Origin: a phage
Strand: one strand, 5' to 3'
DNA length: 44,742 nt
Sequence record: PX974237.1
The notes beneath the pieces are model-generated. The model ran no database searches, had not been told where the DNA came from, and was given only the letters and a program-made list of their open reading frames with translations. Positions 7,183 through 34,985 of this stretch are shown piece after piece; position 1 is the first letter of the stretch; each line of letters opens with the position of its first letter. Position numbers and translations under genes: made by a program.

Positions 7183-7212
7183 TTGAAAGTTCTTGACACA
7201 TGTTTGTATAAT
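7183..7212 (+). promoter_or_regulatory. Strong sigma70-like promoter (TTGAAA-18-TATAAT)
   Basis: TTGAAA at 7183-7188, TATAAT at 7207-7212. Confidence 0.5.
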
Positions 7213-7237
7213 GGTTTTGGGACTTGTATATATTACG

Positions 7238-7274
7238 GAGTTGACGAACCCTCCCCGAGGGATTCGTCAACTCC
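7238..7274 (+). promoter_or_regulatory. Long perfect inverted repeat (hairpin or operator)
   Basis: ggagttgacgaaccctc-ccc-gagggattcgtcaactcc: 17-bp stem with one bulge and a 3-nt loop. Confidence 0.5.
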
Positions 7275-7411
7275 TCCCAGACAGCTGAGATGCTTGCCTT
7301 GGGGTTTATGGATAAGTGTATCTAAATCTCATTTAAAGAAGTAACCCGCTGAAATATCTACTGTTTCTTAATGTGCCGTAGATTCGCAACCGTAAAAATG
7401 TAACGATTATT

Positions 7412-7438
7412 GGGCAGGCTTAAGCCTGCCCTTTAGTT
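7412..7438 (+). terminator. Terminator-like hairpin
   Basis: gggcaggc-ttaa-gcctgccc followed by tttagtt. Confidence 0.45.
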
Positions 7439-7503
7439 ACCAAGTAATAAGAATAAAGGCACAACCCTCCCCGAAGAATCACAACGGCAACGTAACTAAT
7501 CTC

Positions 7504-7532
7504 TTGCACACCCCAACATAATAGGATACTAT
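7504..7532 (+). promoter_or_regulatory. Early promoter (TTGCAC-17-TACTAT), conserved family
   Basis: TTGCAC 7504-7509, TACTAT 7527-7532; about 38 bp near-identical to minus-strand promoters at 19051-19079 and 29089-29117. Confidence 0.55.
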
Positions 7533-7566
7533 TCACTTATCGAAACGAGACATAAGGAATTTAGAA

Positions 7567-18007: not shown

Positions 18008-18468
18008 TGATGGGCTTTTTCAAAGTAACTGACGTACCGTCTCGTCGCGTAGTCCAGTACGCCCGCGTGTCTGGCTCTGGCGAGAACGTGGTATTTATTG
18101 GGGACGAAAGTGTACTCGGTACACCGGTAGATGATATGCCGTTTGCAGATAAAACCGGTATTGCGTTGCCCGCCGCCGGTATGCTTTATGAAATTCCGTA
18201 TCTGGCGGACGCTGGCGACGTGTATTTCTCTGCGCAACCGCAGGACGCTGAACTGGCGGGCGGCAGCGCAACCATCACTGTCGAGGTTAAGGCAGGCAAA
18301 GCGCCGTATTCTCTGACCTGGTACAAAGACGGTAAGGAAGTGGTGAATGCGCCTGAGGAGGCTCTGTCTCTGACGGTTAATGCGGTCGGCGAATACTTCG
18401 TTAAAGTTACTGATGCCGATGGGGTAGAGGCCGTCAGTAAAGCGGCGAAGGTTACTAAGCCGGAATGA
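18007..18468 (+). CDS. Ig-like domain structural protein
   Basis: 153 aa; C-terminal ATITVEVKAGKAPYSLTWYKDGKEV...YFVKVTDADG resembles a bacterial Ig-like fold. Confidence 0.45.
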   Translation: MMGFFKVTDVPSRRVVQYARVSGSGENVVFIGDESVLGTPVDDMPFADKTGIALPAAGMLYEIPYLADAGDVYFSAQPQDAELAGGSATITVEVKAGKAPYSLTWYKDGKEVVNAPEEALSLTVNAVGEYFVKVTDADGVEAVSKAAKVTKPE

Positions 18469-18493
18469 TAAAAAGCCGGAATGATAAAAAGCC
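18462..18493. repeat. Tandem 16-bp direct repeat (gccggaatgataaaaa x2) across a stop codon
   Basis: Exact duplication seen at 18462-18477 and 18478-18493. Confidence 0.9.
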
Positions 18494-18516
18494 CCGCTAT
18501 GGGGCTTTATTTTTAT
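18486..18516. terminator. Bidirectional rho-independent terminator
   Basis: agcccc-gctat-ggggct with T runs on both sides. Confidence 0.7.
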
Positions 18517-18580
18517 ATGAACATCGCGGTGATAGCCGCAGCAGATACCCACAAAACAAAATAAAACATCACACTATTTG

Positions 18581-18925
18581 TCATTTGCATTTCTCGTCGT
18601 ATGTTTGTTGTAACTGCGACAGACGATTACCGGCTGTCATCTCGTCCATAGAAGGCCCGGCGCCCGTGTCCATAAAGAACAGCGGAACAATCAGGAATGC
18701 GCCTGTAACACCGAGTACAACGTTAGTACCTATTTGCTTATTAACACGGTGCGTAGCGTTGGCTTGAGCTTGTTTTGTCGTGGCGATTCTCGATAGTAAC
18801 TGATTACATGTTGCCGTTGTATCCCCTGCCTGATAAACCTGTAAAGCCGGGTCTGGCAACGACCTTACGCAACCACTCAAACAAACGGCTACAACACCTG
18901 CTACTGCTAATTTAATATATTTCAT
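18581..18925 (-). CDS. Lipoprotein (signal peptide plus lipobox LSGC), possible superinfection-exclusion or envelope moron
   Basis: 114 aa; MKYIKLAVAGVVAVCLSGC signal and lipobox; second hydrophobic segment VVLGVTGAFLIVPLFF. Confidence 0.6.
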   Translation of the reverse strand: MKYIKLAVAGVVAVCLSGCVRSLPDPALQVYQAGDTTATCNQLLSRIATTKQAQANATHRVNKQIGTNVVLGVTGAFLIVPLFFMDTGAGPSMDEMTAGNRLSQLQQTYDEKCK

Positions 18926-19023
18926 AGTTCACCATTACCCGTGTCAATGTCACCAATACCGCTACAAGCCCAAAGAAACATCACCGCATCAACTGCAATT
19001 ACTACTGAAATAACGACTAACAT
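18922..19023 (-). CDS. Small single-pass membrane peptide (33 aa), coupled to the lipoprotein
   Basis: ATG with GGGGAGG RBS 5 nt upstream; MLVVISVVIAVDAVMFLWACSG...; stop overlaps lipoprotein ATG. Confidence 0.35.
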   Translation of the reverse strand: MLVVISVVIAVDAVMFLWACSGIGDIDTGNGEL

Positions 19024-19050
19024 GACGGCCTCCCCGGTTCGATAGAATGA

Positions 19051-19079
19051 ATAGTACCCTATTATATTGGGGTGCGCAA
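19051..19079 (-). promoter_or_regulatory. Early-family promoter (TTGCGC-17-TACTAT) driving the membrane peptide and lipoprotein
   Basis: Minus-strand -35 at 19079-19074, -10 at 19056-19051; spacer accccaatataataggg nearly identical to promoter at 7504-7532. Confidence 0.55.
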
Positions 19080-19145
19080 ACTATTTGTTTATGTATTCCG
19101 GTTATTCCACTCAATTGTAAATGTTGGAATAAACTATTCGAATAG

Positions 19146-19174
19146 TTGACTTTTCACCAAAAATGTGCTAAGCT
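19146..19174 (+). promoter_or_regulatory. Candidate promoter (TTGACT-17-TAAGCT with TG extended -10)
   Basis: TTGACT 19146-19151; TGcTAAGCT 19166-19174. Confidence 0.35.
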
Positions 19175-19354
19175 CCACCTGAGCTTGTGAAGTATGAACA
19201 AGCGACCGCGGCGCGGGCAGGTAACGGAGCGGGACGTAAGTCCTGAGTGTAGTTACGCTGACGCGTTCGGAAGGGCCATACTCTATTGCTTGTGTAAAAA
19301 GTAACTGGTTTACTGAGATTACGCCGTTTCTATGTTTAAATGATAAGGACTAGC

Positions 19355-19381
19355 GCCCCGCTTTAAGGCGGGGCTTTACTT
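19355..19381 (+). terminator. GC-rich hairpin with weak T tract just upstream of the spanin RBS (terminator or attenuator)
   Basis: gccccgc-tttaag-gcggggc followed by tttactt. Confidence 0.35.
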
Positions 19382-19398
19382 ATCGAGAAAGGAGAAAC

Positions 19399-19785
19399 AT
19401 GAATCTTAAAGCAACCGTCGTAGCAGGAGCATGTTTCATCATCCTGGCTTACACACACGGCATTTATCAGTACCGCAGCGGCTGGAGCGAAGGCCGGGCG
19501 AATCTCGTTTCGCAGCAACAGCAGAAAGCGCAGGCCGAGTTAGCGAAGAAAACACAACGGCAGCAGCAGGACGAATCAAAGGCCGCCGCCGCCGACAACG
19601 AAGGCAAGACGAAATCAGAGGTGATTACCCGTGAAGTCGTTAAATACATTAAAACGCCAGGTCGCAGCGTGTGCACTTTCGACGATGCTCGCGTCCTGCT
19701 CAAGTCCCACGCCGTCGCAAACGCTAATTCCATTACCGGATACGACGATGATGCAGCCTCCGTGCAAACTGGCAGCTCCAAGTAG
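19399..19785 (+). CDS. i-spanin (Rz-like)
   Basis: 128 aa; N-terminal transmembrane segment, Gln/Ala-rich coiled coil; contains an overlapping lipoprotein ORF in the +1 frame. Confidence 0.55.
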   Translation: MNLKATVVAGACFIILAYTHGIYQYRSGWSEGRANLVSQQQQKAQAELAKKTQRQQQDESKAAAADNEGKTKSEVITREVVKYIKTPGRSVCTFDDARVLLKSHAVANANSITGYDDDAASVQTGSSK

Positions 19786-19894
19786 CGACGCTGACGAGGA
19801 TTTAGCTATCGACGTTCAGAACGCTGAATGCGTACGGCAACTGAGACTGAAAGTGTTCATGTTGCAGGATTACGTGAGGAATATTCTGGAATAG
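19631..19894 (+). CDS. o-spanin (Rz1-like lipoprotein) overlapping the i-spanin gene
   Basis: GTG start with GAGGTGA RBS; signal peptide and lipobox LASC followed by Pro-rich segment; embedded in and extending past 19399..19785. Confidence 0.5.
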   Translation: MKSLNTLKRQVAACALSTMLASCSSPTPSQTLIPLPDTTMMQPPCKLAAPSSDADEDLAIDVQNAECVRQLRLKVFMLQDYVRNILE

Positions 19895-19976
19895 TTGCCT
19901 TGCATGTTGGAATAATTTATTCTTGACATGTAAATCCGGGTGGCCCGGGTTCCAACGTCCAGGGGACATACTGACT

Positions 19977-20678
19977 ATGAATCGTTTTTTACGTTATCCG
20001 TTCCGGGAAGAAGCTGGGGCAGAAGATAAAGCTGGTGGCGGTGACGCGCCGAAAATGTTCACCGCTGAAGAAGTTCAGGCGCTGATTGAGAAAGAAGTTG
20101 CCGGGCTTAAGGCTAATCAGGAAGCATTGTTGGCGGAGAAGAAAGAAGCCGCTCGCAAAGCAAAAGAGGCCGAAGAAGAACGGCAGCGCGCGCACCAGGA
20201 GGCGTTAAAAGCCGCTGGTAAGATGGATGAGTTCGAAAAGACGATTCGTAGCCAGTATGACCCGGTGTTAGCCGAGAAAGACGGTCGCATCTCCAGAATG
20301 GCAGAGCGTATCCTCGGCAGCGAACGTAAAGCGGTGCTAGGCTCTTTCGCGGGTGACTTTATTACCCCAGAAGCAGTGGACATTCTTGCGCCGTTCGTTA
20401 AGACTGAGTTCGAAGGCGATGATGTGGTTACTAAGTTTGTTGGTGCAGACGGTAACGTAATCACGACTGACCCGGAACAGTTCCGCAAATACCTGCGCGA
20501 ACACAAGGCGTTTTCGCATTTGATCAAAGCAAATGCAGCTTCCGGCGGCGGGGCTTCCGGTAGCAAAGGCGGCGGGGCCGCACCAGCGTTTAAAGACATG
20601 AGTGAAGCAGAGCGTTTAGCCCTGTATAAATCGAACCCTGCCGAATTTGAACGGCAACTTAAAGCCCTGAGGAAATAA
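19977..20678 (+). CDS. Scaffolding protein
   Basis: Start placed at ATG 19977; Ala/Glu/Lys-rich coiled-coil protein immediately upstream of major capsid gene. Confidence 0.55.
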   Translation: MNRFLRYPFREEAGAEDKAGGGDAPKMFTAEEVQALIEKEVAGLKANQEALLAEKKEAARKAKEAEEERQRAHQEALKAAGKMDEFEKTIRSQYDPVLAEKDGRISRMAERILGSERKAVLGSFAGDFITPEAVDILAPFVKTEFEGDDVVTKFVGADGNVITTDPEQFRKYLREHKAFSHLIKANAASGGGASGSKGGGAAPAFKDMSEAERLALYKSNPAEFERQLKALRK

Positions 20679-21730: not shown

Positions 21731-21746
21731 GGTTAAGATATAATCG

Positions 21747-21770
21747 AGAGGGACTTCGGTCCCTCTTTTC
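21747..21770 (+). terminator. Rho-independent terminator after capsid gene
   Basis: agagggac-ttcg-gtccctct followed by TTTTC. Confidence 0.6.
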
Positions 21771-24646: not shown

Positions 24647-25038
24647 GTTTCGCGCTTGATGTCTCTAAGTTCGTGGAAAAGGCGAAGAAGAACCCTGAGA
24701 AGGTGATGCGTCAGGTGTCTATCAAGCTGTTTTCCGCTATTATAAAGGCGAGTCCGGTAGATACTGGTCGGTTTCGCATGAACTGGATGGCATCTGGCGG
24801 TACTCCTGCTTCCGGGATTACGGATGCTACGGATAAATCAGGAAACACAGCAACCGGAAACGCTACAAGTTTCGTGCTGAAAGCCGCTGACTGGCATGAG
24901 TTCACGCTGACAAATAACCTGCCGTATGCACAACGGCTGGAGTATGGCTGGTCGCAACAGGCCCCGCAAGGATTCGTCAGGACTAACGTGTCCCGCTTCC
25001 AGCAACTCATTAACGAAGAAGCTAGCAAGGTGAGATGA
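24643..25038 (+). CDS. Neck or tail-completion protein (HK97 gp10-like, putative)
   Basis: 131 aa; position and size; coupled start. Confidence 0.4.
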   Translation: MSFALDVSKFVEKAKKNPEKVMRQVSIKLFSAIIKASPVDTGRFRMNWMASGGTPASGITDATDKSGNTATGNATSFVLKAADWHEFTLTNNLPYAQRLEYGWSQQAPQGFVRTNVSRFQQLINEEASKVR

Positions 25039-25451
25039 TGGGCTACTTTGAGGACTTAACAAAAGCGTTTGATGTGCCGCTGGTAGCCTTCGGAACCACC
25101 AACGGCATCAAGGTAGCGCTTGAAAACATCGACGCGCCGACGTCAACAGATACGCCGTATCTGGCAAGTTACATGTTGCTGGCGGATACCGAGCAGGCTG
25201 ACTTATTCTTCACGGAACAACGCGCTGGCGTCTATCAGGTAGATATTAACTACGCATCGGTGAAAGGTAGCGCGCCGATCAATAAAATGGCAGACTTACT
25301 TAACACGGCGTTTAAAGCAGGTAAGTCATTTTCACGTAACGACATCTGCGCCGAGGTTCAATCGGTTAGCCTGGGGCCGCTGATTGTAGAAAACGGATGG
25401 GCCAAACGACCATTGTCAATTAACTTTATTGCATTCACCAAGAGGCTGTGA
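25035..25451 (+). CDS. Tail terminator or completion protein (putative)
   Basis: 138 aa; immediately upstream of the tail tube gene. Confidence 0.4.
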   Translation: MMGYFEDLTKAFDVPLVAFGTTNGIKVALENIDAPTSTDTPYLASYMLLADTEQADLFFTEQRAGVYQVDINYASVKGSAPINKMADLLNTAFKAGKSFSRNDICAEVQSVSLGPLIVENGWAKRPLSINFIAFTKRL

Positions 25452-25453
25452 AT

Positions 25454-26620
25454 ATGGCTACAACTCCTTTTAAGGGCGCGAATACCGCGCAATTCTATGT
25501 GGCGGAAGTGACCCCGGGCGTAACACCGGCTAACCCGGTATGGTCGCCGTTGCGCAACACGGGCGGCGTTCCTGCCATTACCCGCGACACGCTGACCTCC
25601 AACGAACTTGACGGCAGCCGAGAAACCACATCCATCCGCACCGGTAACAAGCAGGTTAGCGGAGAATACGCTATTGAGCTTAGCTCTAAAAGTCAGGACG
25701 ACTGGTTAGCCGGGGCTTTAGGCTCTACGTGGCAATCCGGCGTTTCCCTGTCAGGGCTATCGATTACCGTCGCACCGGCTGGCAAGACGTTCACTCGTGC
25801 CACCGGCAGCTTTATCACTGACGGAGTTGAGGTAGGCGACCTGATTGCGTTTACCAACTTAACAGGCGATAACGCAAAACCATTTATCGTTACTGCAGTA
25901 ACGGCTACGGTTGTTACTGGTGCTGGTATCCAACACACCCTGACCACAGAGACAAAAACTAGTAAGGCTAAAACTGGCGACACGCTGGAAACCGGTAACA
26001 CGTGTAAGACGTTCTCTATCCTTACCTGGTACAAAGGCCAGTGCGGCGGCACTGACGCGTACACGTTAACCAAAGGCGTGGAAGTTTCTGGTTTTACCAT
26101 CGAACAGGCTGTTAACGCGATGGTAACTGGCAGCTTCCCATTCATCGGTCGCAGTCAGGAGATTCTCACTACGCCGCCGACCGGTTCCAACTTCTCATCT
26201 GTTACTTTTGGTGATGAGCCGTTCTCTTCGGTTGACGTTTCCGTGTTCGACGGCTCTACGCCGTTGCGTTGCGACAGTCTGACTATCACCAACGATAACA
26301 GCGCGTCCGCGCAGTTCGAACTTGGTAACACTAACGTAGCGTTTGTGGAGCGTGGACGCGCAGCTAACACATTCTCTATCTCTGGCAAGCTGTACGACAT
26401 GGCGATGATTCAGAAGTTTATCAACGAGCAGCAGGTAGAGATTAACTCTATTCTGGCAGGGGTAAACGGGGCTATGTCTTTCAGTTTGAAACGTGCAGAG
26501 CTTACGGCGGTTACACCTGAGATTGGTGGGCCTGAGTCAATCACTCAGTCCATTGAAGGCCAGGCTACCGGCAATCAGTACCAGTCGTCTATCGTAATTC
26601 AACGTATCACCTACGCATAA
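25454..26620 (+). CDS. Major tail (tube) protein
   Basis: About 388 aa; Thr/Ser/Gly-rich, positioned before tail chaperones and tape measure; followed by a strong terminator. Confidence 0.6.
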   Translation: MATTPFKGANTAQFYVAEVTPGVTPANPVWSPLRNTGGVPAITRDTLTSNELDGSRETTSIRTGNKQVSGEYAIELSSKSQDDWLAGALGSTWQSGVSLSGLSITVAPAGKTFTRATGSFITDGVEVGDLIAFTNLTGDNAKPFIVTAVTATVVTGAGIQHTLTTETKTSKAKTGDTLETGNTCKTFSILTWYKGQCGGTDAYTLTKGVEVSGFTIEQAVNAMVTGSFPFIGRSQEILTTPPTGSNFSSVTFGDEPFSSVDVSVFDGSTPLRCDSLTITNDNSASAQFELGNTNVAFVERGRAANTFSISGKLYDMAMIQKFINEQQVEINSILAGVNGAMSFSLKRAELTAVTPEIGGPESITQSIEGQATGNQYQSSIVIQRITYA

Positions 26621-26624
26621 AACT

Positions 26625-26650
26625 AAGGCCCCTTTCGGGGCCTTTTTCTT
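26625..26650. terminator. Bidirectional rho-independent terminator (tail tube + / kinase -)
   Basis: aaggcccc-tttc-ggggcctt followed by TTTTCTT. Confidence 0.7.
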
Positions 26651-27203
26651 ACAAACCTAATTTTAAAGCAATGTCTATAACGTTCGATTTAACGTCACCC
26701 GGTATGATGTAGGTGTCGTAATCTTTTACACCACCAACATCGTACAGATAGCCACGGCTATCGCCGATGAACGTATAGCCGTCACGATGGAGGCGGACGA
26801 TTCGCACGTCATGCCCCGCGGCGACGATAGGGGCAACTTCACTGGCGAATCCACCGTCGGACACTACAAAAACTTCGTCGCCGTCAGGCAAGTTTTCAGC
26901 AAGATACTTACCGAAATAATCATCGCCGAATACCGGTTTAATGAATTGCTCAGAAATGGCAATCATTAACCGGCGGCGGGACAACCCATTAAGAAAACCC
27001 TCGGGTTTTTCTTTCCGCGCCCGGTCGTCGTAGCCGTCGAGAAATTCGTGGTAAGCATCCTGGCCTAACGCTGCCAAAGCAATATTGAACATTGGATTCT
27101 TGAAACTGGTAGTTCCTTTCGCAAAGCCCATTTCTACCAGCGCCATAGCAAGCGTGTCTTTCCCGCAACCCGCAGGGCCATTAAGAATAATTACCTTAGC
27201 CAT
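26649..27203 (-). CDS. P-loop nucleotide kinase (dNMP-kinase-like; possibly polynucleotide 5'-kinase)
   Basis: 184 aa; Walker A GPAGCGKDT and RRLM segment as recalled from T4 gp1 dNMP kinase. Confidence 0.6.
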   Translation of the reverse strand: MAKVIILNGPAGCGKDTLAMALVEMGFAKGTTSFKNPMFNIALAALGQDAYHEFLDGYDDRARKEKPEGFLNGLSRRRLMIAISEQFIKPVFGDDYFGKYLAENLPDGDEVFVVSDGGFASEVAPIVAAGHDVRIVRLHRDGYTFIGDSRGYLYDVGGVKDYDTYIIPGDVKSNVIDIALKLGL

Positions 27204-27691
27204 TATTTATCGCTCCCGTGTGGTTTTAAGTGTGTAGAGTTCCCGTTACAGTCGTATTCGGTAACTGCGTGTACGGTTATGCCGAGGTCACGGAAATGCT
27301 TTATTACCGCTGGAGAGTCGTCGAACGCACACAAGATTCTTTCCAGTCCGAAAGCACGCAACACCTCTTCTTTAATTACGATGTCTTTTCTGTTGTCGTG
27401 TTTGCTGCGCATGATTAGCGTGTCAAACCTAACGTTATTCTCTCGTAACCATTCGCGAGTCTCCTCCTCAGCGTCATCACTTCGCCCGGTAAGGATAATT
27501 ATAGTAAGTCCGGAATGCCACAGTACGCTACACAAATGGATATTGTCGTATATCGGAGCGTCATCTTTGCAGGCCATGTTAAATGGCTTCCACGCCCACG
27601 TTTCTCCGTAGTTATCTTTTGGTAACAGGTGTAAGCGATGGGTACCGTCAGCCAATGTCCCGTCTAAATCGAAAATTACAATATCTTTCAT
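27203..27691 (-). CDS. HAD-superfamily phosphatase resembling the 3'-phosphatase domain of polynucleotide kinase-phosphatase
   Basis: 162 aa; VIFDLDGTLA motif I, IILTGR motif II, DNRKDIVIKEEV...FDDSPAV motif III/IV, closely resembling my recollection of the T4 PseT phosphatase domain. Confidence 0.65.
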   Translation of the reverse strand: MKDIVIFDLDGTLADGTHRLHLLPKDNYGETWAWKPFNMACKDDAPIYDNIHLCSVLWHSGLTIIILTGRSDDAEEETREWLRENNVRFDTLIMRSKHDNRKDIVIKEEVLRAFGLERILCAFDDSPAVIKHFRDLGITVHAVTEYDCNGNSTHLKPHGSDK

Positions 27692-28818
27692 CCCAGCATC
27701 TCCGGTGAAATAGTTAAACGTGCGACCTCGCCATATTCGGCGCTATAAGTAATTACATTTGCACTGCGGCCCGACATCCATCCGCCGCGAGAGGCGTAGG
27801 CGTCTTTAGCCGCTAAGGTGCGGTGTTGCTCAACAATCATGTTACGGCTTTCTACAATCTTCTGGTGGTGCAGATGGCCTACGTGGGCGTAGCTGTAAAC
27901 ACTCTCGCCGAACGCTTTACGGAACTTGGCAATCATAACCGGTTCGATAGCGTCGAATCGTGCTTTATGCCCGTGATGGAAGAACAGCGTCGTTTTGCCG
28001 TGTTGCACCATCTTGTAAACATCCGGCGACGTATCAACAATCACTCGGCTGTCGTTTGAGTATAAAACCGTGAACATTTCAGCAAGCCATACGGAGCCAA
28101 CAGGGTCGTGGTTACCTTGAACGATTAAAAGTTTTACTGTGTGATGCTTAACCAGCGCCATATCAACAACACGGCGGACCATACGAATCATGTAACGTAC
28201 CAGTTTCTGATAGCGAGTATCCGCATCTAATACATGGCGCGACTCGGGGGTAACGGCATCAAGACTATCGAAGTGTGCGAAGTCCCCAAGCAGGTTAATA
28301 ACTCCTGTTCCTGCATCCGGTGCTTTCTGAAACGCCGCGTCGAACCACCGAGAGAACAGGTCTTCTGCAATCTTCATGTCCCAGTCGTCGCCGCTCTCAT
28401 CGGCCCATGCCAGCATACCGAGATGGAAATCAGATACAGTGTAAAGATTGAGTAGCTTGTCGTCACGTTTGGCGCGCGCCGCTTTAACAGGCGCAACGGG
28501 CGTAATCTCTGACTTCATGCCCTCTATTACGGCTTTCATCAATTCAACCTGACGTTCGGCGTCGGTATCAGTCTTAACCCATTGCAACTTAGTGTTGCCG
28601 AACTCGTCCACAAGTGACGACGTTCCTTTAATCTTGTAACCGTCTGGTACAAGGTGACTAACGTCGCGCCCGTGGCCTACGCCTTTCTTAGCCAGCTTCG
28701 CTTTACGGATACGAATAACGCGGTCTGAGATGCCGTATTTACGGGCGATATCTACATTCTTCATACCGGCGTTCAATTCTTCCTGCAACTGTTCGTCGGT
28801 TATTTTCTTCCGGGCCAT
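27688..28818 (-). CDS. Calcineurin-like metallophosphoesterase with N-terminal HTH domain
   Basis: 376 aa; phosphoesterase motifs DFH, GDFAHFD, GNHD, HHGH, GHLHH; N-terminal 50 aa KNVDIARKYGISDRVIRIRKAK looks like an HTH. Confidence 0.7.
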   Translation of the reverse strand: MARKKITDEQLQEELNAGMKNVDIARKYGISDRVIRIRKAKLAKKGVGHGRDVSHLVPDGYKIKGTSSLVDEFGNTKLQWVKTDTDAERQVELMKAVIEGMKSEITPVAPVKAARAKRDDKLLNLYTVSDFHLGMLAWADESGDDWDMKIAEDLFSRWFDAAFQKAPDAGTGVINLLGDFAHFDSLDAVTPESRHVLDADTRYQKLVRYMIRMVRRVVDMALVKHHTVKLLIVQGNHDPVGSVWLAEMFTVLYSNDSRVIVDTSPDVYKMVQHGKTTLFFHHGHKARFDAIEPVMIAKFRKAFGESVYSYAHVGHLHHQKIVESRNMIVEQHRTLAAKDAYASRGGWMSGRSANVITYSAEYGEVARLTISPEMLG

Positions 28819-28855
28819 GTTTATTCCTCGTGCTTAGGATTTGTCCTATACTAGC

Positions 28856-29047
28856 TCACTTCTCTTTGACATTCGAGTTGCAAGCCCAGATTAAAATAAA
28901 TACCCACGGCAGCAGAACCCATCCAAGAAACAGATTAGCCATGAATATCGCTAATTTCGCTTTATGGTCGCGCATATGCGCCACGAGAAATGGAATAAAA
29001 TAAACTAAAACGATAATGATTAAGAAGAACATAGTAATACCCGTCAT
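28856..29047 (-). CDS. Superinfection-immunity-like small membrane protein (Imm_superinfect-like)
   Basis: Start at internal ATG 29047 with AGGAG RBS; 63 aa with two TM helices; YFIPFLVAHMRDHKAKLAIFMANLFLGWVLLPWVFILIWA matches the Imm_superinfect pattern. Confidence 0.55.
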   Translation of the reverse strand: MTGITMFFLIIIVLVYFIPFLVAHMRDHKAKLAIFMANLFLGWVLLPWVFILIWACNSNVKEK

Positions 29048-29088
29048 GGTGTAGCTCCTGTTTGGGATAACATCGTTGGTGTAAGTGA

Positions 29089-29117
29089 ATAGTACACTAT
29101 TATATTGGGGTGTGCAA
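29089..29117 (-). promoter_or_regulatory. Early-family promoter (TTGCAC-17-TACTAT) driving the imm / phosphoesterase / phosphatase / kinase cassette
   Basis: Minus-strand -35 at 29117-29112, -10 at 29094-29089; spacer accccaatataatagtg nearly identical to 7504-7532 and 19051-19079. Confidence 0.55.
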
Positions 29118-29224
29118 GTAATGTGATAGAATAATTTTGCGCCTAGTGTCGCACACGAAAAGCGGGTGGTTCCCGTCTGGCGCATTAACCTTAACCCGTA
29201 ACCTCTTAACCAAAGGATTAAAGA

Positions 29225-29641
29225 ATGAAACTTTCTGATTTTTATTACGAAGCTGAGGCAGAAAAAGGCGCCCGTATGCCGATCCCACTGAAAGACGGCA
29301 CCGATTCAGGGGAGTGGCTGAACGTTGTTTCACCGGAGGCAGACGTTGCGGTTAAAGCCATGCGTGCATTTACCCTGGCGTACCGCGCGTCGTTAGGTAA
29401 ACTGAAGCCGCTTCGTGATAAATGCGAGGAACTGAAAGATTTCTCGGAATATAACATTAAGATGGAAGACGCCGCGACGGACCTTAACCGCCAGTTAGCA
29501 CTTGAACTGGTTAACGGTTGGAGTCTCGACGATGAATTTAATAAAGAGAACCTGAATACTCTTTTTTCACAATATAAACGCCTCGCTGAACACGTTGTTG
29601 TTTTCCACAACGAACAGCTTCACCAATTGCAGGAAAAGTAG
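29225..29641 (+). CDS. Tail assembly chaperone (lambda G-like)
   Basis: 138 aa acidic protein immediately upstream of tape measure; downstream ORF in the -1 frame overlaps its 3' end. Confidence 0.55.
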   Translation: MKLSDFYYEAEAEKGARMPIPLKDGTDSGEWLNVVSPEADVAVKAMRAFTLAYRASLGKLKPLRDKCEELKDFSEYNIKMEDAATDLNRQLALELVNGWSLDDEFNKENLNTLFSQYKRLAEHVVVFHNEQLHQLQEK

Positions 29642-29646
29642 ACGCG

Positions 29647-30006
29647 TTGCTCCAGTTTGCCCGTTGGAACTTCATAACTCGCCACAAACGGCGGGAGTTT
29701 GACAGTATCTCCGACGGGCATAAAGCCGCGCTAATTGCTATGGGGGTTATGCAAGACGCGCCGGAAGCAACGCAGGACACCGGGCCAGAATGCCCCCCTG
29801 AGCTATTAACCACCTTCGAGAAGTACAGGGAAATCAAATTCACCCGCCGAGTGGACGATGATGGCATCAAGATGTATCCGCGTGAACAGTTAAGATGGTC
29901 GGATTTAGTGGCATATAGCACCGTTTCAGGCCAGAATATAGGCATGTTTGAATCTGACATCATCATGAGCTTAGACGCTATTTTCGAGGGTAGAAACGAT
30001 GGCTGA
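29647..30006 (+). CDS. Tail assembly chaperone extension (lambda T-like), probably made as G-T fusion by -1 frameshift
   Basis: -1 frame relative to 29225..29641 is open from 29590; candidate slippery heptamer G_GAA_AAG at 29632-29638; no convincing independent RBS (track start is TTG). Confidence 0.4.
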   Translation: MLQFARWNFITRHKRREFDSISDGHKAALIAMGVMQDAPEATQDTGPECPPELLTTFEKYREIKFTRRVDDDGIKMYPREQLRWSDLVAYSTVSGQNIGMFESDIIMSLDAIFEGRNDG

Positions 30007-32338
30007 TGTAGCTAGTTTAGTTGTAAAAGTATCAGAGCAAGGCGCGAAAGCTACATCAGACCGTCTTGATAACCTTTCCAAGTCTGCAAAGGTAGCCGGA
30101 GCTGCGGTAGCGGGCCTCGCTTCCATCGTCGCCGCTACCGCTTACAAGGCCGCACAGGAACTAGTTGACTCACAGCGGCAACTGGACAAGATGTCCGCCA
30201 GTTTGAAGACCTTAACCGGAAGTACCCAAGGTGCTAAACAGGCGCTAAGTATCCTGCAAGATTTTGCACGCGACACCCCATACGGACTGGAGCAGGCGGT
30301 GGAAGGCTTCCGTAAGCTGGTGGCCCTTGGCCTTACCCCATCCGAGGAGGCGTTGCGGTCCTACGGCAATACCGCATCGGCTATGGGTAAGGACCTTAAT
30401 CAGATGATTGAGGCGGTAGCCGACGCCAGTACGTTTGAGTTCGAACGCCTCAAAGAATTCGGCATCAAAGCCAAGCAGAACAAAACCGACGTAGAGTTTA
30501 CGTTCCAGGGAACGACAACCGTAGTTAAGAAAAGCGCTGCCGATATTGAGCAGTATTTACTTAACATTGGTAACGTAAATTTTGCGGGGGCTATGGCTGA
30601 CCAGGCCAACACCCTTAACGGGGCCATCGCCAGTGCCAGCGACTCATGGTCGCAGTTAAAAATGACACTGGCTACCAGTCTTGATGTTGGTGCGCTCGCC
30701 GAACCTATCCGATACATCGATGATTTAATCCAGGAACTTAACGCACAGGTTGCATCCGGTGAACTTGCCGCAGAGATGCGTATGTGGGGTGACATCGCGT
30801 CGGAAGTAGGAAGCGCAATAGAGATGTCATTCGACGCGGCATTTGGTTTCGTGGGTGATGCGATAAACGGGCTAAATGAGCTTTGGGATTTTAGTAGCAA
30901 AAGTATCACGGATAGCGGCGAACAAACGGCGACAACCATAGCGGAATCAGCCGCCGATGCGCTCGATTTCATCGCGGAAGAATTTACCGCGATGGAGCGC
31001 TTCTTTGAGGATATGGTTAAAGGGGCGCAGGATGCCGGTCGGCTGGTTAAGGCCGCCTTCACACCAGGGGAATCCGTAGACGTAGCAAAAAATATTAACT
31101 TCCAGCTGGGGATGGCACTGGATACTCAGCGCGACGTTGCGGACCTGACACGTAAAAGTTTCCGCGAACAGGTGGAGGCTCAGCAAAATATCGTCGCGCT
31201 TAAACGCGCAGCGTATGACATCGACAAAGAAGCCGCTAAGGAAGAAGGGCTTAGTAAATTTAAGGTAACTGGTACCGGCGGCGGATCTGAAGATGATAGC
31301 GCGGGTGCAAAAGCCGCTAAGAAAGCAGCGGATGCGTTCGAGCGCCAGAAGAAAGCCGCGGAGGATTTCTACTATCAGTCAATTCATCTCAATGATGACG
31401 TATTCCAGAAAATAGAAGCCAACCAGGAACAGCAGTTAACCAAGCTACAGGAGTTTTACGGCAATCAGCTTCTTAGCGACCAGCAGTACGAAAACGCCAA
31501 GACGCAGATTATGCTGGAAGCGGACACTGCTCGCCAGGAGGAACTCGCTAAACGAGAGAAAGAACGGCAGGAAAAGAACCAGAAAGGTGAAGACTTCATG
31601 GCTCAGATTATGGGTCAGAACGCCGCTGAGCTTGAGCTTCTCAACATTCAGGAACAGCAGAAACTGTCGGTAGCAGATAAGTACCGCGAGCAGGGTTTGA
31701 TTAGTGAGAAGCAGTATCAGGCTGCGCTTAATGCCGTCAACGAGCAGTACGCCACGAAGCGTGCCGACGCAACGGCAACGGCCTTCGGTAACATGGCCTC
31801 AAACATCGGTTCGGCTTTGGGCGAGGCTTCTGGCGCGTACAAGGCATTCGCTATCGTGCAGGCCACTATAGCCACGTACACCGCGGCTATTGAGGCGTAT
31901 AAGTCAACAGCGGCTATCCCTGTAGTTGGCCCGTTCCTGGCTCCTGTAGCTGCCGCTGCTGCCGTTGGGGCGGGTATGGCGCAGATTTCCGCTATCAGGT
32001 CCGCACGTGAACAGGGCGGTCAGTTATCCGCTGGGCAGGCTTCTACTATCGCAGAACGCGGTAAACCAGAAGTTATCATGCCCGCTGGTGCGTCACGTGT
32101 ACGCACCGCACAGCAGATGAAAGAAATTATGGGGCAAAACGGCGGCAGTACCGGACCAGCCAATATCAGCATTATAAATAACACCAGTGCACAAATTGGC
32201 AACACCAGCGTTGAACAGGACGAAGAAGGCCGCCTACGTATCATCATCGAAGAACAGGTAGCCGCCTCTTTGCAGAATAGCAACAGCAAAATATCGAAAG
32301 CGAGGAAGGCTACAAGAAACGCACCGGGCTTTAAGTAG
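29999..32338 (+). CDS. Tail tape measure protein
   Basis: 779 aa, Ala/Gln/Glu-rich coiled coil, located after chaperone pair and before tip genes. Confidence 0.8.
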   Translation: MADVASLVVKVSEQGAKATSDRLDNLSKSAKVAGAAVAGLASIVAATAYKAAQELVDSQRQLDKMSASLKTLTGSTQGAKQALSILQDFARDTPYGLEQAVEGFRKLVALGLTPSEEALRSYGNTASAMGKDLNQMIEAVADASTFEFERLKEFGIKAKQNKTDVEFTFQGTTTVVKKSAADIEQYLLNIGNVNFAGAMADQANTLNGAIASASDSWSQLKMTLATSLDVGALAEPIRYIDDLIQELNAQVASGELAAEMRMWGDIASEVGSAIEMSFDAAFGFVGDAINGLNELWDFSSKSITDSGEQTATTIAESAADALDFIAEEFTAMERFFEDMVKGAQDAGRLVKAAFTPGESVDVAKNINFQLGMALDTQRDVADLTRKSFREQVEAQQNIVALKRAAYDIDKEAAKEEGLSKFKVTGTGGGSEDDSAGAKAAKKAADAFERQKKAAEDFYYQSIHLNDDVFQKIEANQEQQLTKLQEFYGNQLLSDQQYENAKTQIMLEADTARQEELAKREKERQEKNQKGEDFMAQIMGQNAAELELLNIQEQQKLSVADKYREQGLISEKQYQAALNAVNEQYATKRADATATAFGNMASNIGSALGEASGAYKAFAIVQATIATYTAAIEAYKSTAAIPVVGPFLAPVAAAAAVGAGMAQISAIRSAREQGGQLSAGQASTIAERGKPEVIMPAGASRVRTAQQMKEIMGQNGGSTGPANISIINNTSAQIGNTSVEQDEEGRLRIIIEEQVAASLQNSNSKISKARKATRNAPGFK

Positions 32339-32352
32339 TAACAAAAAAAAAT

Positions 32353-32376
32353 AAGGCCCGAAAGGGCCTTATTTCT
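32353..32376. terminator. Bidirectional hairpin terminator (strong T run on minus strand)
   Basis: aaggccc-gaaa-gggcctt flanked by A9 upstream and ATTTCT downstream. Confidence 0.55.
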
Positions 32377-32388
32377 CCAGCCTCTGGG

Positions 32389-33039
32389 CTAACGACCCTC
32401 TTTTATCAAGGCGATAACGCGGTCGAACATACCTTCCCTTATCGCCTCTATCTCACATCTTCTTGATTCCGCCACCCTTATCTTTTCAGCAATGTAAGCA
32501 TCTAGCGCTTCTTCCTGAGTTTCAAAACGTCCTAGATTAATAGTTTTTTTATCATAGCTCACTGAGGCTTTAAATTTACCTCTAGATTCTTCATAAAAAA
32601 CACCCGTAGGTGTTCCCCTATTTTTCTTTTCCTTTAGGAAAACATTCAGCCATTTAGGGATGAAGATGCAAGTGGTAGGGCTGTATACCTTATTAATACC
32701 AGAGAATATATCCTTATCTAGCTCCCATCCCTCCACATAATTACAAAGCCACCATCTACGGAAGGACATAAACCTTTGCCACCCATGCCACACAGTTACA
32801 TCCCTGTACGCAGGCCTTTTGTTTTTATACTCGGCGTCCACGCAACGTTGGATCATCCCTCGCCATGTAGCGTACGCCAGACACGTCTCACGGTTGCCGT
32901 TTATCTTGGGGCTAACCACATAATCGGCGTCATTTATGCCAAAATCGCATATAGTTGCACGCTTAGTTTTGCTGCTTTTGTTCGCAGGATAATTCGCACG
33001 CAGCCACATGCTCTTGGCTACTTTTTCGGTTGGCATCAT
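32389..33039 (-). CDS. AP2-domain homing-endonuclease-like protein (HNH motif apparently degenerate)
   Basis: Start placed at ATGATG 33039 with AGGAGA RBS; C-terminal AP2-like GVFYEESRGKFKASVSYDKKTINLGRFETQEEA; AT-rich; the long ORF-track start would overlap the downstream tail gene. Confidence 0.5.
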   Translation of the reverse strand: MMPTEKVAKSMWLRANYPANKSSKTKRATICDFGINDADYVVSPKINGNRETCLAYATWRGMIQRCVDAEYKNKRPAYRDVTVWHGWQRFMSFRRWWLCNYVEGWELDKDIFSGINKVYSPTTCIFIPKWLNVFLKEKKNRGTPTGVFYEESRGKFKASVSYDKKTINLGRFETQEEALDAYIAEKIRVAESRRCEIEAIREGMFDRVIALIKEGR

Positions 33040-33074
33040 GTTAGTATCTCCTAAACTAATAGGAGTATCTTGCC

Positions 33075-34466
33075 ATGTCTTCTTTGAAATTTCCAGCAAG
33101 TTTAAAGCCGGTGGTATCAAAAGGCTACTCAATGACCAGACGTAACAACGTCTGGAGGGTCGATTTAGCCGGTGGCGGGGTGCGTCAGGGCCGTGACACA
33201 TATTACGACGTGTTCCCGGTGAGCGTAACCCTGATCACATCCGCAATGGGGCGGCAGGCGTTTCTGTCGTTCCTCGAAAAAGTAGACGGTGGTGCGTCAA
33301 GTTTCTGGATGGCCCACGATTTCGGCATGGGTATCGAGGATTACCAGGTAACCATCACGTCCACCATCGCCGAGTCCACAGAAGATGGGATTAACTGGAC
33401 AATCACTTTCACAGCAACCGCTGAGAAATCCCCGTTCCAGGATGAAGACAACCAGTGCCTGATTAACAATCTGCCAGATTTGTACGGTTGCTATGGAGAT
33501 TGCCTCGGTGGTTTCCTGAAAGCATATGGCATTTACGAAACGACGTTCCCTCGCATCTGGAGCAATGAAGGCCCAGCAGGACACCCGCCGATTAACCTTC
33601 TGGCGTCGACTCTTGATAGCCGCATTGTGTATGACGGACCACAGGTTTACTACATCAACCGAAACGGCAATCTTGTGCAGTCCGCCGCCAATGAATGGCC
33701 TTTAACATTTATTGATGGTGTTGCTGCAGGTCGTGTGCCGCCGGAAAATATCCGCGTTAATTTCGCAGTAAATAACGCGAACATATCCAGCGCTGCATGG
33801 GTGAAGATTAATATGTCTGTTTCTGAATATGACACCATCACCGGAGGGTATGCCCTAACCCCGACCACAACAAAGGGCTCGCACAATTTAAACCAAACTG
33901 TGACAAACACGACGCACCAGGTAGGTAGTTTGGTGACAGTTAGTTACATGGTCAAGGCTAACGGCTATGATTTTTTCCGCGTAAGAGTAGCTGACAGTTT
34001 AGGCTTCCTGGGGGATGTAGTAATAAACTCTACTTCAGGGGAGGTTGTTAGCGGCGGTAGTGGGTCAACAGTACAAAATCTTGGAGGAGGACTGTTCCGG
34101 GTTACCGAAACAGTAACAATACGGGCCGGGGGGACAACAAGTATACTTATGCAGTGTTTTGTGGACGCTGACGGGTTGAAGTCAACCTATCCGGGAGACG
34201 GGGTCAGCGGTGCGGTTATTTTGCTGCCACAAATAGAAAAATCTGCGATAGCTACATCACCGATAGTAACCGAATCGTCACCGGTAACCCGCGCGACGGC
34301 ATCCGCAAAAGTAGCAATGAACGGTGCGACAAGCATCGACATCACCTATTCCGACGGCACTGTGGTAAACGTTCCGTCTGCTGACGGTTACGCGACTATC
34401 CCGCAAGCGGATTCTGCGTGGGGTAGTAAGTACATCACTCGTATCGACTTTAATGTGGACGGTTAA
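33075..34466 (+). CDS. Minor tail protein, lambda gpM-like N-terminal domain with long C-terminal extension
   Basis: 463 aa; first ~115 aa (FLSFLEKVDGGASSFWMAHDF) resemble gpM family; remaining ~350 aa Thr/Ser/Gly-rich. Confidence 0.45.
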   Translation: MSSLKFPASLKPVVSKGYSMTRRNNVWRVDLAGGGVRQGRDTYYDVFPVSVTLITSAMGRQAFLSFLEKVDGGASSFWMAHDFGMGIEDYQVTITSTIAESTEDGINWTITFTATAEKSPFQDEDNQCLINNLPDLYGCYGDCLGGFLKAYGIYETTFPRIWSNEGPAGHPPINLLASTLDSRIVYDGPQVYYINRNGNLVQSAANEWPLTFIDGVAAGRVPPENIRVNFAVNNANISSAAWVKINMSVSEYDTITGGYALTPTTTKGSHNLNQTVTNTTHQVGSLVTVSYMVKANGYDFFRVRVADSLGFLGDVVINSTSGEVVSGGSGSTVQNLGGGLFRVTETVTIRAGGTTSILMQCFVDADGLKSTYPGDGVSGAVILLPQIEKSAIATSPIVTESSPVTRATASAKVAMNGATSIDITYSDGTVVNVPSADGYATIPQADSAWGSKYITRIDFNVDG

Positions 34467-34469
34467 TTT

Positions 34470-34985
34470 ATGAGTCAGGAATCAGTAGAAGCTGCCTATC
34501 GCCGTAAGCTGGCCTCCAACCCCGACGGCGAGATGGACTACATCACGTTGCAAATCAGCCACCCGTTGCTGTCTAAGACGTACTATCTTGTGCGCGGGTT
34601 ACAGGAACTCACGGCAACACTGGAGACAGGCGAAATTATCACGTTCGAGCCAACCCCGATGGAGGCGTCGGGGGCGGCTAACAACAGTGATATGGACCAG
34701 ACGACTACGTTTACTTTACCGGATATTCTCAATCAACTTGACGATGAGATGGATAAAATCCCTATGAGTAACACCGAGTTGCCGAAGTTCGTCTTCCGTC
34801 GTTACGTCAGCACAGACCTGTCTTATCCGGCTGACGGTCCTGTCATGTATGAGTTGCAGGCCATCAACCAGGAGAAGGGCGAGTTCTCCGCGGATGTTGG
34901 TACACCTATGCTGAACCAGCGAAGCACTGGTATACTGATGACACCTAAAGAGATACCGTTATTACGCGGCCTGTTGACCACATGA
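34470..34985 (+). CDS. Minor tail protein, lambda gpL-like (putative)
   Basis: 171 aa; position in M-L-K-J order. Confidence 0.4.
   Translation: MSQESVEAAYRRKLASNPDGEMDYITLQISHPLLSKTYYLVRGLQELTATLETGEIITFEPTPMEASGAANNSDMDQTTTFTLPDILNQLDDEMDKIPMSNTELPKFVFRRYVSTDLSYPADGPVMYELQAINQEKGEFSADVGTPMLNQRSTGILMTPKEIPLLRGLLTT

Follow-up and report, generated by a model that had tools for sequence, protein, structure and literature searches.

A conserved structured RNA upstream of the spanin genes in Guernseyvirinae phages and its possible role as a 5' leader

Introduction

What is encoded by about 200 nucleotides (nt) that lie between a promoter and the spanin genes of a phage, if not a protein? The question is raised by the phage sequence record PX974237.1, whose full length of 44,742 nt is referred to below as the window. 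At positions 19146-19381 of this window, a promoter-like sequence is followed by a segment ending in a GC-rich hairpin right before the ribosome-binding site of the i-spanin gene. A first-pass annotation had left three options for the segment: a small RNA (sRNA), an attenuator-controlled leader or a tiny protein gene. In the analysis presented here, the protein option was discarded and the non-coding RNA option was retained, with the evidence leaning to a leader that is read through into the spanin genes. A functional non-coding RNA on the plus strand is strongly supported by the covariation within the segment and by its conservation, the latter being well above that of the flanking genes. The explanation that we favour, at about even confidence, is that the segment forms a cis-acting non-coding structured 5' leader RNA of the spanin transcription unit and represents the K allele of a new family.

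Results

Conservation of the segment among related phages

The window was assigned to a Kagunavirus-like phage of the Guernseyvirinae, as a 1-kb query returned 300 phage records, nearly all of them from Escherichia and Salmonella Guernseyvirinae (Kagunavirus, Jerseyvirus). In an annotated relative, the genes of terminase, portal, head morphogenesis and a Hoc-like protein are followed by a short variable slot, the leader, the i-spanin gene with the embedded o-spanin gene, and the scaffold and major capsid genes. The holin and endolysin of this relative are located elsewhere in the genome and only the spanins are found downstream of the leader. The gene served by the leader in the window, i-spanin, occupies 19399-19785 on the plus strand (PHROG Rz-like spanin, E = 2.7e-54), and the o-spanin gene, also confirmed by PHROG, 19631-19894. 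The Shine-Dalgarno sequence of the spanin gene, GGAG, was read at 19391-19394 and the i-spanin start codon at 19399-19401 of the plus strand.

The element was found at the same position across the subfamily in four sequence types, K, J, C1 and C2, amounting to about 480 records of E. coli and Salmonella phages, and was located directly upstream of i-spanin in the K, J and C loci examined. The leader of the window is of the K type, which was counted in 181 GenBank records; phages without it have a diverged homologue in its place. The J type, with a length of about 197 nt, is carried by most Jerseyviruses and was detected in 269 GenBank records that are mostly 95-99% identical within the type. 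The C1 type (about 235 nt) was represented by FSL SP-031 and phiEap-2. The C2 type of PhiSTP1 and its relatives (about 300 nt, about 35 records) has a different promoter, TTGACAC-N8-TATAAT.

With a 261-nt query spanning the segment, 180 records of 95-99.6% identity were detected, 65 of which belong to Salmonella phages, whereas the surrounding kilobase was only 60-95% identical in most K-type records. In comparison with Salmonella phage ER23, the identity of the leader was 99.5%, while those of i-spanin, scaffold and the region upstream of the promoter were 77%, 82% and 87%, respectively. The mean pairwise identities of 37 K-type loci were 96.4% for the leader, 94.1% for the promoter, 88.6% for i-spanin, 81% for scaffold and 71% for the upstream region. 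The comparison with related genomes, which the first-pass annotation had proposed, resulted in the segment being the best-conserved part of its neighbourhood, and the absence or poor conservation in close relatives which that annotation had considered was clearly not found. The breaks in identity coincided with the leader's own edges, which refers to a self-contained cis module. No other part of the neighbourhood is as constrained as the leader, which phage genera exchange as a block.

An i-spanin alignment search added 71 loci from IMG/VR. In distant phages of this set (L063-L068, L071 and L072), an ORF-poor stretch (ORF, open reading frame) of 230-300 nt precedes the spanin gene and carries a different operator, the palindrome GACTCGCAAAATTTTGCGAGTC. 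These stretches share with the C types GACUUAGG, CUUCAAU, and GCUGCCGU ... ACGGCAGC, the last two of which could pair across about 200 nt. The covariance model described below does not detect the pre-spanin stretches of the distant IMG/VR phages.

The 36-codon reading frame

The only plus-strand ORF of at least 25 codons in the segment is the 36-codon arginine-rich frame at 19194-19304, just as first annotated; a 19-codon GTG ORF is present in another frame. Several GenBank records list the 36-codon ORF as a hypothetical protein, which would favour a small arginine-rich protein encoded either by this ORF or by a short frame over the block read as AFGRA. The annotation of the spot is inconsistent among the relatives, as it shows the 36-aa ORF, a 38-aa ORF in the other frame, an ORF on the opposite strand, or nothing. 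An open frame reading AFGRA is indeed common to K and J, but the start codons, the N-terminal parts and the rest of the peptides differ between the types, and the shared frame is explained by the conservation of the nucleotide block GC[GA]TTCGGAAGGGCC.

The frame was broken in 7 of the 31 distinct K variants: three were truncated at codon 9, one at codon 17, one was frameshifted, one had GTG instead of ATG and one was without a start. The variants with a shifted frame retained the RNA pairs, for example by the change from CGGGAC/GUCCUG to CGGAC/GUCCG. The ATG of the ORF is located within an 11-nt stretch that is missing from the Jerseyvirus homologues of the J type, and the ORF is absent from J, C1 and C2. 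No ORF is common to the C types, and the C1b leader has no ORF of at least 15 codons. The 22 distinct substitutions in the ORF were distributed as 7, 8 and 7 over codon positions 1, 2 and 3, respectively, 16 of them being non-synonymous and 6 synonymous; no position bias was seen. The frame had no match among the PHROG families. In line with the poor ribosome-binding site reported previously, the AUG lies in a hairpin loop and lacks a proper Shine-Dalgarno sequence. The ORF was judged to be spurious and, due to the broken frame, the missing codon bias and the missing PHROG match, the tiny-protein option was rejected; a coding function of the segment is barely credible.

Secondary structure and covariation

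A covariance model was built from the 31 K variants, and every K and J copy was detected with it at E = 1e-17 or below. The first structure model contained a local hairpin, SL2 (19206-19216), and gave 94.2% paired cells with 15 pairs changing on both sides. SL2 was replaced by the long-range helix P2, since its loop base C38 changes together with G91 in the J type and in the loci L016 and L035. When RNAalifold was applied to a MAFFT alignment made without reference to a structure, C38:G91 was seen as U:A in 9 of the 19 sequences. The program independently detected both P2 and the GC stem of the terminal hairpin. The revised structure with P2 resulted in 97.6% of 1978 cells paired in the K and J alignment, in comparison with 34-39% when the 3' partners were slid. 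In this alignment, 16 of the 51 pairs change on both sides and are still paired; the corresponding values were 9.2 +/- 1.5 for shuffled alignments (none of 500 reached the observed value) and 1-5 for slid partners. The K-only MAFFT alignment, which was not fitted to a structure either, had 5 pairs with changes on both sides, compared with 0.5 +/- 0.7 in the shuffles (0 of 500) and 0-1 with slid partners.

The leader starts with the 5'-proximal hairpin SL1, GCUUGU-GAAGUAUGA-ACAAGC, at 19183-19203 of the plus strand, the loop of which holds the AUG of the 36-codon ORF. The pairing of SL1 was complete in K (100%), where three changes from U:A to U:G were seen, and none of its pairs changes on both sides. 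Different hairpins were seen by eye at the SL1 position of the J type (ACGCU/AGCGU) and of the C1 type (UUCGU/ACGAA); these may lie partly upstream of the start site.

SL1 is followed on the plus strand by a rod domain of 65 nt and 23 pairs at 19206-19270, which is supported by covariation and consists of three stacked parts, namely P2 (19206-19216 with 19262-19270), P3 (19218-19225 with 19252-19260) and, beyond an internal loop, SL3 (19230-19245), capped by a GUAA (GNRA) tetraloop. P2 and P3 comprise 17 pairs, 7 of which change on both sides, and SL3 6 pairs with 3 such changes. The minimum-energy fold of 19181-19274 contained the same SL1 and rod, with z = -3.3.

The purine block CGGAAGGGCC at 19268-19277 (plus strand) closes P2 with its CGG, while the following AAGGGCC is unpaired. 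K and J show no variation in CGGAAGG and almost none in the block as a whole; the block reads GCGGAAGGG[CU]C in C1 and is replaced by CGGGGAUAG in C2. A local hairpin around CGGAAGGG, P4, was considered and dropped as unsupported, since only 52-74% of the cells were paired and no covariation was seen. The small plus-strand hairpin H5, AGUAA-CUGGU-UUACU at 19300-19314, is weakly supported: it was 98.7% paired in K with wobble-compatible changes and variation concentrated in the loop, but none of its pairs changes on both sides and J does not retain it.

The 27 nt at 19315-19341 of the plus strand, GAGAUUACGCCGUUUCUAUGUUUAAAU, are predicted to be single-stranded and were almost invariant in the 31 K variants, even in the divergent locus L035. 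The related sequences are AAGAUUCGCCGUAUGAUGUUUAC in J and GUAGAUUCGCAACCGUAAAAAUG in the paralogous unit described below (7377-7400). This stretch is a candidate site for a sequence-specific interaction. Positions that vary within K form clusters in the terminal-hairpin and H5 loops and along the 3' strand of P4. GUUUCU of the stretch (19326-19331) can pair with AGAAAC (19393-19398), by which the spacer between the Shine-Dalgarno sequence and the AUG would be covered, and one compensatory change was seen between K and J. A cross-type test of duplex energies did not separate own from foreign partners, and the occlusion of the ribosome site by this pairing is tentative.

Two alternative pairings were seen, neither of them strongly supported: the local SL2 in place of the long-range P2, and a 5'-3' pairing proposed by RNAalifold. 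The latter, a closing helix, was not adopted because it lies partly upstream of the inferred start and rests on a single split between K and J. A single covariance model for the four types aligned only the 5' core of the phiEap-2-like C1 leaders (16-18 bits), and the C-type helices were judged from alignments and folds, not from formal pair counts.

The strand preference of the fold bears on the explanation that the conserved entity is DNA, such as an operator array, a packaging site or a replication origin, with incidental hairpins. The segment does belong to a region of divergent promoters with several inverted repeats, and its DNA is strongly conserved. However, the folding energy of the rod was -30.0 kcal/mol on the plus strand and -18.9 kcal/mol on the minus strand, and many of the conserved pairs are G:U on the plus strand, which would be A:C on the other strand. 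Both observations indicate therefore an RNA read from the plus strand rather than a DNA element. In addition, the compensatory changes preserve the pairing and not the sequence, and the cumulative GC skew turns at about 6-7 kb, not at the leader. A function at the DNA level is accordingly rated as very improbable.

The terminal hairpin

The hairpin reported earlier, with a 7-bp GC stem before the spanin ribosome-binding site, was recovered as GCCCCGC-TTTAAG-GCGGGGC at 19355-19374, followed by TTTACTTATC. The weak T tract described together with it proved to be UUUACUUAUC, with three consecutive U in the RNA. This stem is the upper part of a larger plus-strand structure. The extended terminal hairpin covers 43 nt (19342-19384) and has 17 pairs (6+3+8), a folding energy of -20.8 kcal/mol and z = -4.35. 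It consists of the basal stem GAUAAG/CUUAUC (19342-19347 with 19379-19384), the stem UAG/UUA (19351-19353 with 19376-19378) and the GC stem with the loop UUAA (19355-19374), all on the plus strand. The lower and middle stems are separated by a 3-nt versus 0-nt internal loop, and there is a single-nucleotide mismatch between the two upper stems. Six pairs of the hairpin change on both sides while remaining paired: two covarying pairs belong to the basal stem and four to the upper part, 19351-19378. Within K, the GC stem occurs as GCCCCGC/GCGGGGC and as GCCCUGC/GCAGGGC. The basal stem is GAUAAG/CUUAUC in K, UAUACG/CGUAUA in J, and GUAA/UUAC, GUGU/ACAC or GUAU/AUAC in the C types.

The terminator scan listed 19355-19374 with 8 pairs, 7 of them GC, and the tail given above, the tract of which is broken after the third U. 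The U tract differs between the types, being UUUACUUAUC in K, UUAG (CUUAGCGUAUA) in J and missing in the C types (CACUGUUACG); the short tract of K is part of the lower stem. The terminal hairpin ends 6 nt before the Shine-Dalgarno sequence in the window and a few nt before it in all types. As the U tract is unconserved, the basal stem across it covaries and the hairpin always abuts the Shine-Dalgarno sequence, these results indicate that the hairpin is not mainly a terminator and that termination is not its conserved role. In K, the GC hairpin may well stop some of the transcripts. The full basal stem forms only in RNA extending past the termination point, and therefore the read-through RNA is under selection. 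Mainly for this reason, a 5' leader is preferred to a stand-alone sRNA.

A trans-acting sRNA of about 200 nt, transcribed from the promoter up to the hairpin and directed at a host or phage RNA or protein by its invariant stretch and conserved loops, is unlikely, yet it deserves attention. It would agree with the listing of the hairpin and its T-rich tail by the terminator scan in K, with the near invariance of 19315-19341 and CGGAAGG(G)CC, with the modular transfer of the leader between genera and its conservation above that of the neighbouring genes, and with the paralogous unit at 7193-7445, which has no gene directly after it. In contrast, the U tract is limited to 2-3 U in K and J and is lacking in the C types, the covarying basal stem across it needs read-through RNA, and the element always adjoins the spanin ribosome site. 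The long uninterrupted 3' U tail that is typical of Hfq-dependent sRNAs is not present either, as the tail UUUACUUAUC has three consecutive U only. The antisense complementarity to other parts of the phage genome did not exceed 13 nt, which is at chance level, and the leader had no match in E. coli genomes in a search that is blind to short seed pairings.

No antiterminator pairing was found by inspection, as neither strand of 19355-19374 had a convincing alternative partner. A classical attenuator, which had been among the options of the first-pass annotation, is therefore not supported.

Promoter and operator

The promoter described in the first-pass annotation was read from the sequence at the same coordinates. 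It is of sigma-70 type with an extended -10 and spans 19146-19174 of the plus strand, with TTGACT at 19146-19151, a 17-nt spacer containing TG at 19166-19167, and TAAGCT at 19169-19174. As TAAGCT agrees with TATAAT at only 3 of 6 positions, the promoter is missing from the output of a simple promoter scan, and it is weak by consensus alone. Three diverged leader types (K, J and C1) nevertheless have a common layout at this site: the palindrome GGAATAAnnTATTC, 5-6 nt, T[TGA]GA[CT]T, 17 nt and TGnTA[AC][GC]CT. In 40 K-type loci, the hexamers were nearly invariant and the variation was found mainly in the spacer. As the layout is conserved across diverged types, the promoter is credible beyond chance. 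The record of phage fBC-Eco01 annotates it as a predicted host promoter. From the promoter geometry, transcription is expected to start at 19181-19182 on the plus strand, 7-8 nt past the -10.

Operator-like inverted repeats are located at 19126-19147, upstream of the -35 and overlapping it. They comprise GGAATAAACTATTC at 19126-19139 and the perfect 16-bp palindrome AACTATTCGAATAGTT at 19132-19147, which was found as a self-match and is overlapped in the K type by the GGAATAAnnTATTC motif. The exact sequence GGAATAANNTATTC occurs twice in the window, at 19126 and at 19909, the latter before the scaffold gene; with up to 2 mismatches, 11 matches were obtained against 3.6 expected. The operator motif is kept ahead of the K, J and C1 leaders. 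These repeats are a putative binding site of a phage regulator.

The second exact palindrome, GGAATAATTTATTC, lies between the o-spanin and scaffold genes, in a control region at 19909-19977. It is followed by a conserved hairpin, CCGGG-UGG-CCCGG (about 19934-19950), with compensatory changes between the types (AUCCGGG/CCCGGGU, CACCGGG/CCCGGUG and GCCGGG/CCCGGC), and then by GUCCAGGGGACAUAYUGACUAUG. No good -10 was present at the usual distance in this region and the apparent TTGACA is not conserved.

A further 25-nt motif, AATAGTACCCTATTATATTGGGGTG, was found three times in the window, at 7509-7533 (minus strand), 19050-19074 (plus strand) and 29088-29112 (plus strand), with no occurrence expected by chance. 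In a published genome paper, the same motif was termed a 'phage promoter' (tgAATAGTa-ccTATTat-T, seven copies in fBC-Eco01) and assigned to a phage RNA polymerase. Such a polymerase is seemingly not encoded by these phages. The opposite strand of the motif, CCAATATAATAGG, holds a perfect TATAAT, and the motif carries GAATAG/CTATT half-sites resembling the leader operator. The copy at 19050 would fire leftward into two small cargo genes.

The paralogous unit at 7193-7445

The covariance model also matched 7329-7455 of the window (25-27 bits, E ~1e-5) and the equivalent site of phage Bas73 (37188-37351 of locus L083), where an ORF is annotated on the opposite strand. The match marks a paralogous promoter-to-hairpin unit at 7193-7445 on the plus strand, which is probably the first segment of this kind noticed in the first-pass annotation. 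Its promoter-like motif TTGACACATGTTTGTATAATG is unique in the window and is of the TTGACAC-N8-TATAAT type that precedes the C2 spanin leaders. A near-perfect hairpin, GGAGUUGACGAA...UUCGUCAACUCC, is located at about 7238-7276. The 3' module has the design of the spanin leader: AGAUUCGC..., GUAAC, the GC hairpin GGGCAGGC-UUAA-GCCUGCCC, UUUA and GUUAC.

The unit thus resembles the spanin leader in having a promoter-like motif, an ORF-poor structured stretch and a 3' module with AGAUU(A)CGC... and a basal stem flanking a GC hairpin. It differs in its 5' domain, its promoter and its location in the early divergent control region, and no ribosome site follows it directly. The phage therefore has a pair of related units, of which one precedes the spanins and the other lies in the early divergent control region. 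The minimum of the cumulative GC skew, at about 6-7 kb, falls on the divergent early control region with the paralogous unit, where the gene orientation switches; over the whole length of the window, the skew tracks the direction of transcription.

Comparison with known RNAs

The whole window had no match in Rfam 15 at gathering thresholds. A relaxed search of 18900-20000 gave chance-level matches only (E = 0.45-3.4) and nothing convincing at E up to 10, and no match was obtained at E up to 1 for seven related loci of all types. ARAGORN found no tRNA or tmRNA in the window, in line with the earlier remark that the composition is unlike a tRNA. Literature searches on Guernseyvirinae, Kagunavirus, Jerseyvirus and MB78 gave no description of the element. 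The temporal transcriptome of a related phage covers genes only and no intergenic RNA (PMC12645636), and in the fBC-Eco01 paper promoters and terminators were predicted and no RNA was described (PMC9825357).

The combination of several helices, conserved unpaired nucleotides and loops of the GNRA or UNCG kind in one domain might suggest a riboswitch-like sensor, in which a 5' aptamer-like domain for a metabolite, an ion or a protein times spanin synthesis through the variable 3' hairpin. The expression platform would control transcription in K and J, where this hairpin is terminator-like, and translation in the C types, where it lacks the U tract and stands beside the Shine-Dalgarno sequence. 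No mutually exclusive antiterminator or anti-sequestrator pairing with covariation was found, however, and the Rfam searches of the window and the seven loci were negative. The 5' domain also varies considerably by type; for example, where K and J have P2, the C types have a local GNRA hairpin. A sensor is for these reasons highly doubtful.

The layout seems to be closest to the late leader of phage lambda, in which the PR' promoter, the 194-nt 6S RNA and the tR' terminator are located upstream of S-R-Rz/Rz1. Both have an untranslated leader of about 200 nt (about 195-205 nt here) that runs from a sigma-70 promoter to a hairpin and is followed by lysis and then head genes. In the phages studied here, only the spanins follow the leader, the promoter has an upstream operator, and the U tract is weak or absent across the family. 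Unlike the lambda leader, this one is held by RNA covariation and is more conserved than its neighbours. No Q protein or Q-binding element is known for this phage group.

Processive antitermination, either by a put-like modification of the polymerase or by a Q-system leader of the lambda type, would allow transcription to pass the hairpin and later terminators. It would be consistent with the lambda-late-like order of a leader of about 200 nt, a terminator-like hairpin, Rz/Rz1-type lysis genes and head genes, with the structured RNA beginning within a few nt of the inferred start, and with the strong terminator that the terminator scan placed at 21746-21767, after the capsid gene. The put RNA of HK022 is about 70 nt long, has two stems in a V shape and binds the zinc-binding domain of beta' (PMC9378689). 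The leader is comparable with it as a promoter-proximal structured nascent RNA that is made by the host polymerase upstream of terminator-like signals, but it is about 200 nt long and has another architecture, and its action on the polymerase is only hypothetical. The covariance model (R2) had no match up to E = 10 in HK022 25000-36500, the expected region of PL/putL and PR/putR. A separate control region, marked by GGAATAA (19909-19977) and without this leader, serves the scaffold and capsid genes, and therefore antitermination at the leader cannot be the general route of late expression. A Q-like protein is not annotated among the 81 genes of the fully annotated close relative Bas73, which refers to the annotation only and not to a hidden Markov model search, and the hairpin of the C types is not a terminator. 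Taken together, antitermination is quite improbable.

Hairpins processed by RNase III are known from the R sites of T7 and the N leader of lambda. The terminal hairpin is similar to them in its irregular form, the lower and upper stems being separated by an asymmetric internal loop, in its location just upstream of a ribosome site and in that the pairing and not the sequence covaries. It differs in having only about 17 bp and, in K, an upper stem that is also like an intrinsic terminator. In the E. coli ompA leader, a hairpin of the 5' untranslated region (5'-UTR) acts as a stabiliser. The spanin leader shares with it a hairpin a few nt from the inferred 5' end and a long structured untranslated leader, but is far more conserved than a generic stabiliser needs, unpaired stretches included, and its SL1 is without formal covariation.

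The variable slot and neighbouring genes

The slot between the Hoc-like gene and the leader contains leftward cargo genes that differ from phage to phage; in the window they occupy 18581-19023 on the minus strand and encode a lipoprotein of 114 amino acids (lipobox LSGC; phrog_13472, function unknown) and a hydrophobic peptide of 33 amino acids. A DpnA-like methylase and a hypothetical protein are found in the same slot of ER23 and a PAPS reductase in that of FSL SP-031, while the slot is empty in many Jerseyviruses. It looks like a hotspot of accessory genes.

The 100-codon ORF at 18465-18767 (plus strand) overlaps the lipoprotein gene on the opposite strand and the hairpin AAAGCCCCGCTATGGGGCTTT (18488-18508), which is terminator-like on both strands. 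It is annotated as a coding sequence in one relative, K-02, and is probably spurious. In Salmonella phage celemicas, the tRNA-Ser (anticodon TGA) annotated in the record (939-1017 of locus L003, minus strand) was reproduced by ARAGORN and overlaps the 3' end of the Hoc-like gene and its terminator. ARAGORN predicted no tRNA in the Jerseyvirus Shelanagig (L006), which has the same local gene layout, or in the window. The tRNA-Ser call in celemicas may be a false positive.

Discussion

According to the favoured explanation, a cis-acting leader of the spanin unit, host RNA polymerase together with a phage regulator bound at GGAATAA/TATTC would start transcription near 19181. In the K type, the GC hairpin followed by UUUACUUAUC would stop a fraction of the transcripts, resulting in an RNA of about 200 nt, and the remainder would be read through. 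The read-through RNA would form the full basal stem, and the terminal hairpin would then be an element of the 5'-UTR of the spanin mRNA. Its most likely role would be that of a hairpin for processing or stability, of the kind cut by RNase III in the T7 and lambda leaders, and it may also limit the access of ribosomes. The element would thus act in cis with host factors and set the amount and the form of the spanin message.

Several points weigh against such a leader. The start site, the efficiency of termination and the processing are all inferred. The near-invariant 19315-19341 and the leader identity of about 96% exceed the needs of a simple stabilising or processing leader, and this constraint hints at a partner recognised by sequence, as would fit an RNA acting in trans or an element that binds a factor. 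With about 17 bp, the terminal hairpin is short for a typical RNase III substrate. The ribosome-occluding pairing GUUUCU/AGAAAC is backed by one compensatory event and a duplex test that does not discriminate. Moreover, there is no evident reason why spanin genes should have so elaborate a leader.

The near invariance of 19315-19341 and CGGAAGG(G)CC is not explained by the leader model, and there is therefore room for a specific partner. In an alternative that we hold to be unlikely but worth pursuing, the element is a new functional class of phage RNA, the loops and single-stranded stretch of which bind such a partner to time lysis or late expression or to counter the host. The partner could be the host RNA polymerase, the ribosome, a ribonuclease, a defence protein or a small ligand. 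The RNA would act either in cis, as a new device of antitermination or riboswitch type, or in trans, and the paralogous unit at 7193-7445 would be its second copy.

When phages are isolated against E. coli and Salmonella for use in therapy or food safety, Guernseyvirinae (Kagunavirus, Jerseyvirus and Cornellvirus) are among those obtained most frequently, and GenBank contains hundreds of their genomes. In the set studied here, the best-conserved part around their spanin genes is an unannotated RNA and not a gene. Many records leave the spot blank or fill it with a spurious hypothetical protein, and the recognition of the RNA corrects this annotation. A well-supported family of structured RNA with four alleles and a paralogue, matched by no Rfam family, is added. 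The promoter, operator, leader and ribosome site form a compact module that is swapped between phage genera. If the leader controls the expression of the spanins or of the late genes, it would offer a new handle on the timing of lysis; if it binds a host factor, it would be a new kind of phage RNA effector.

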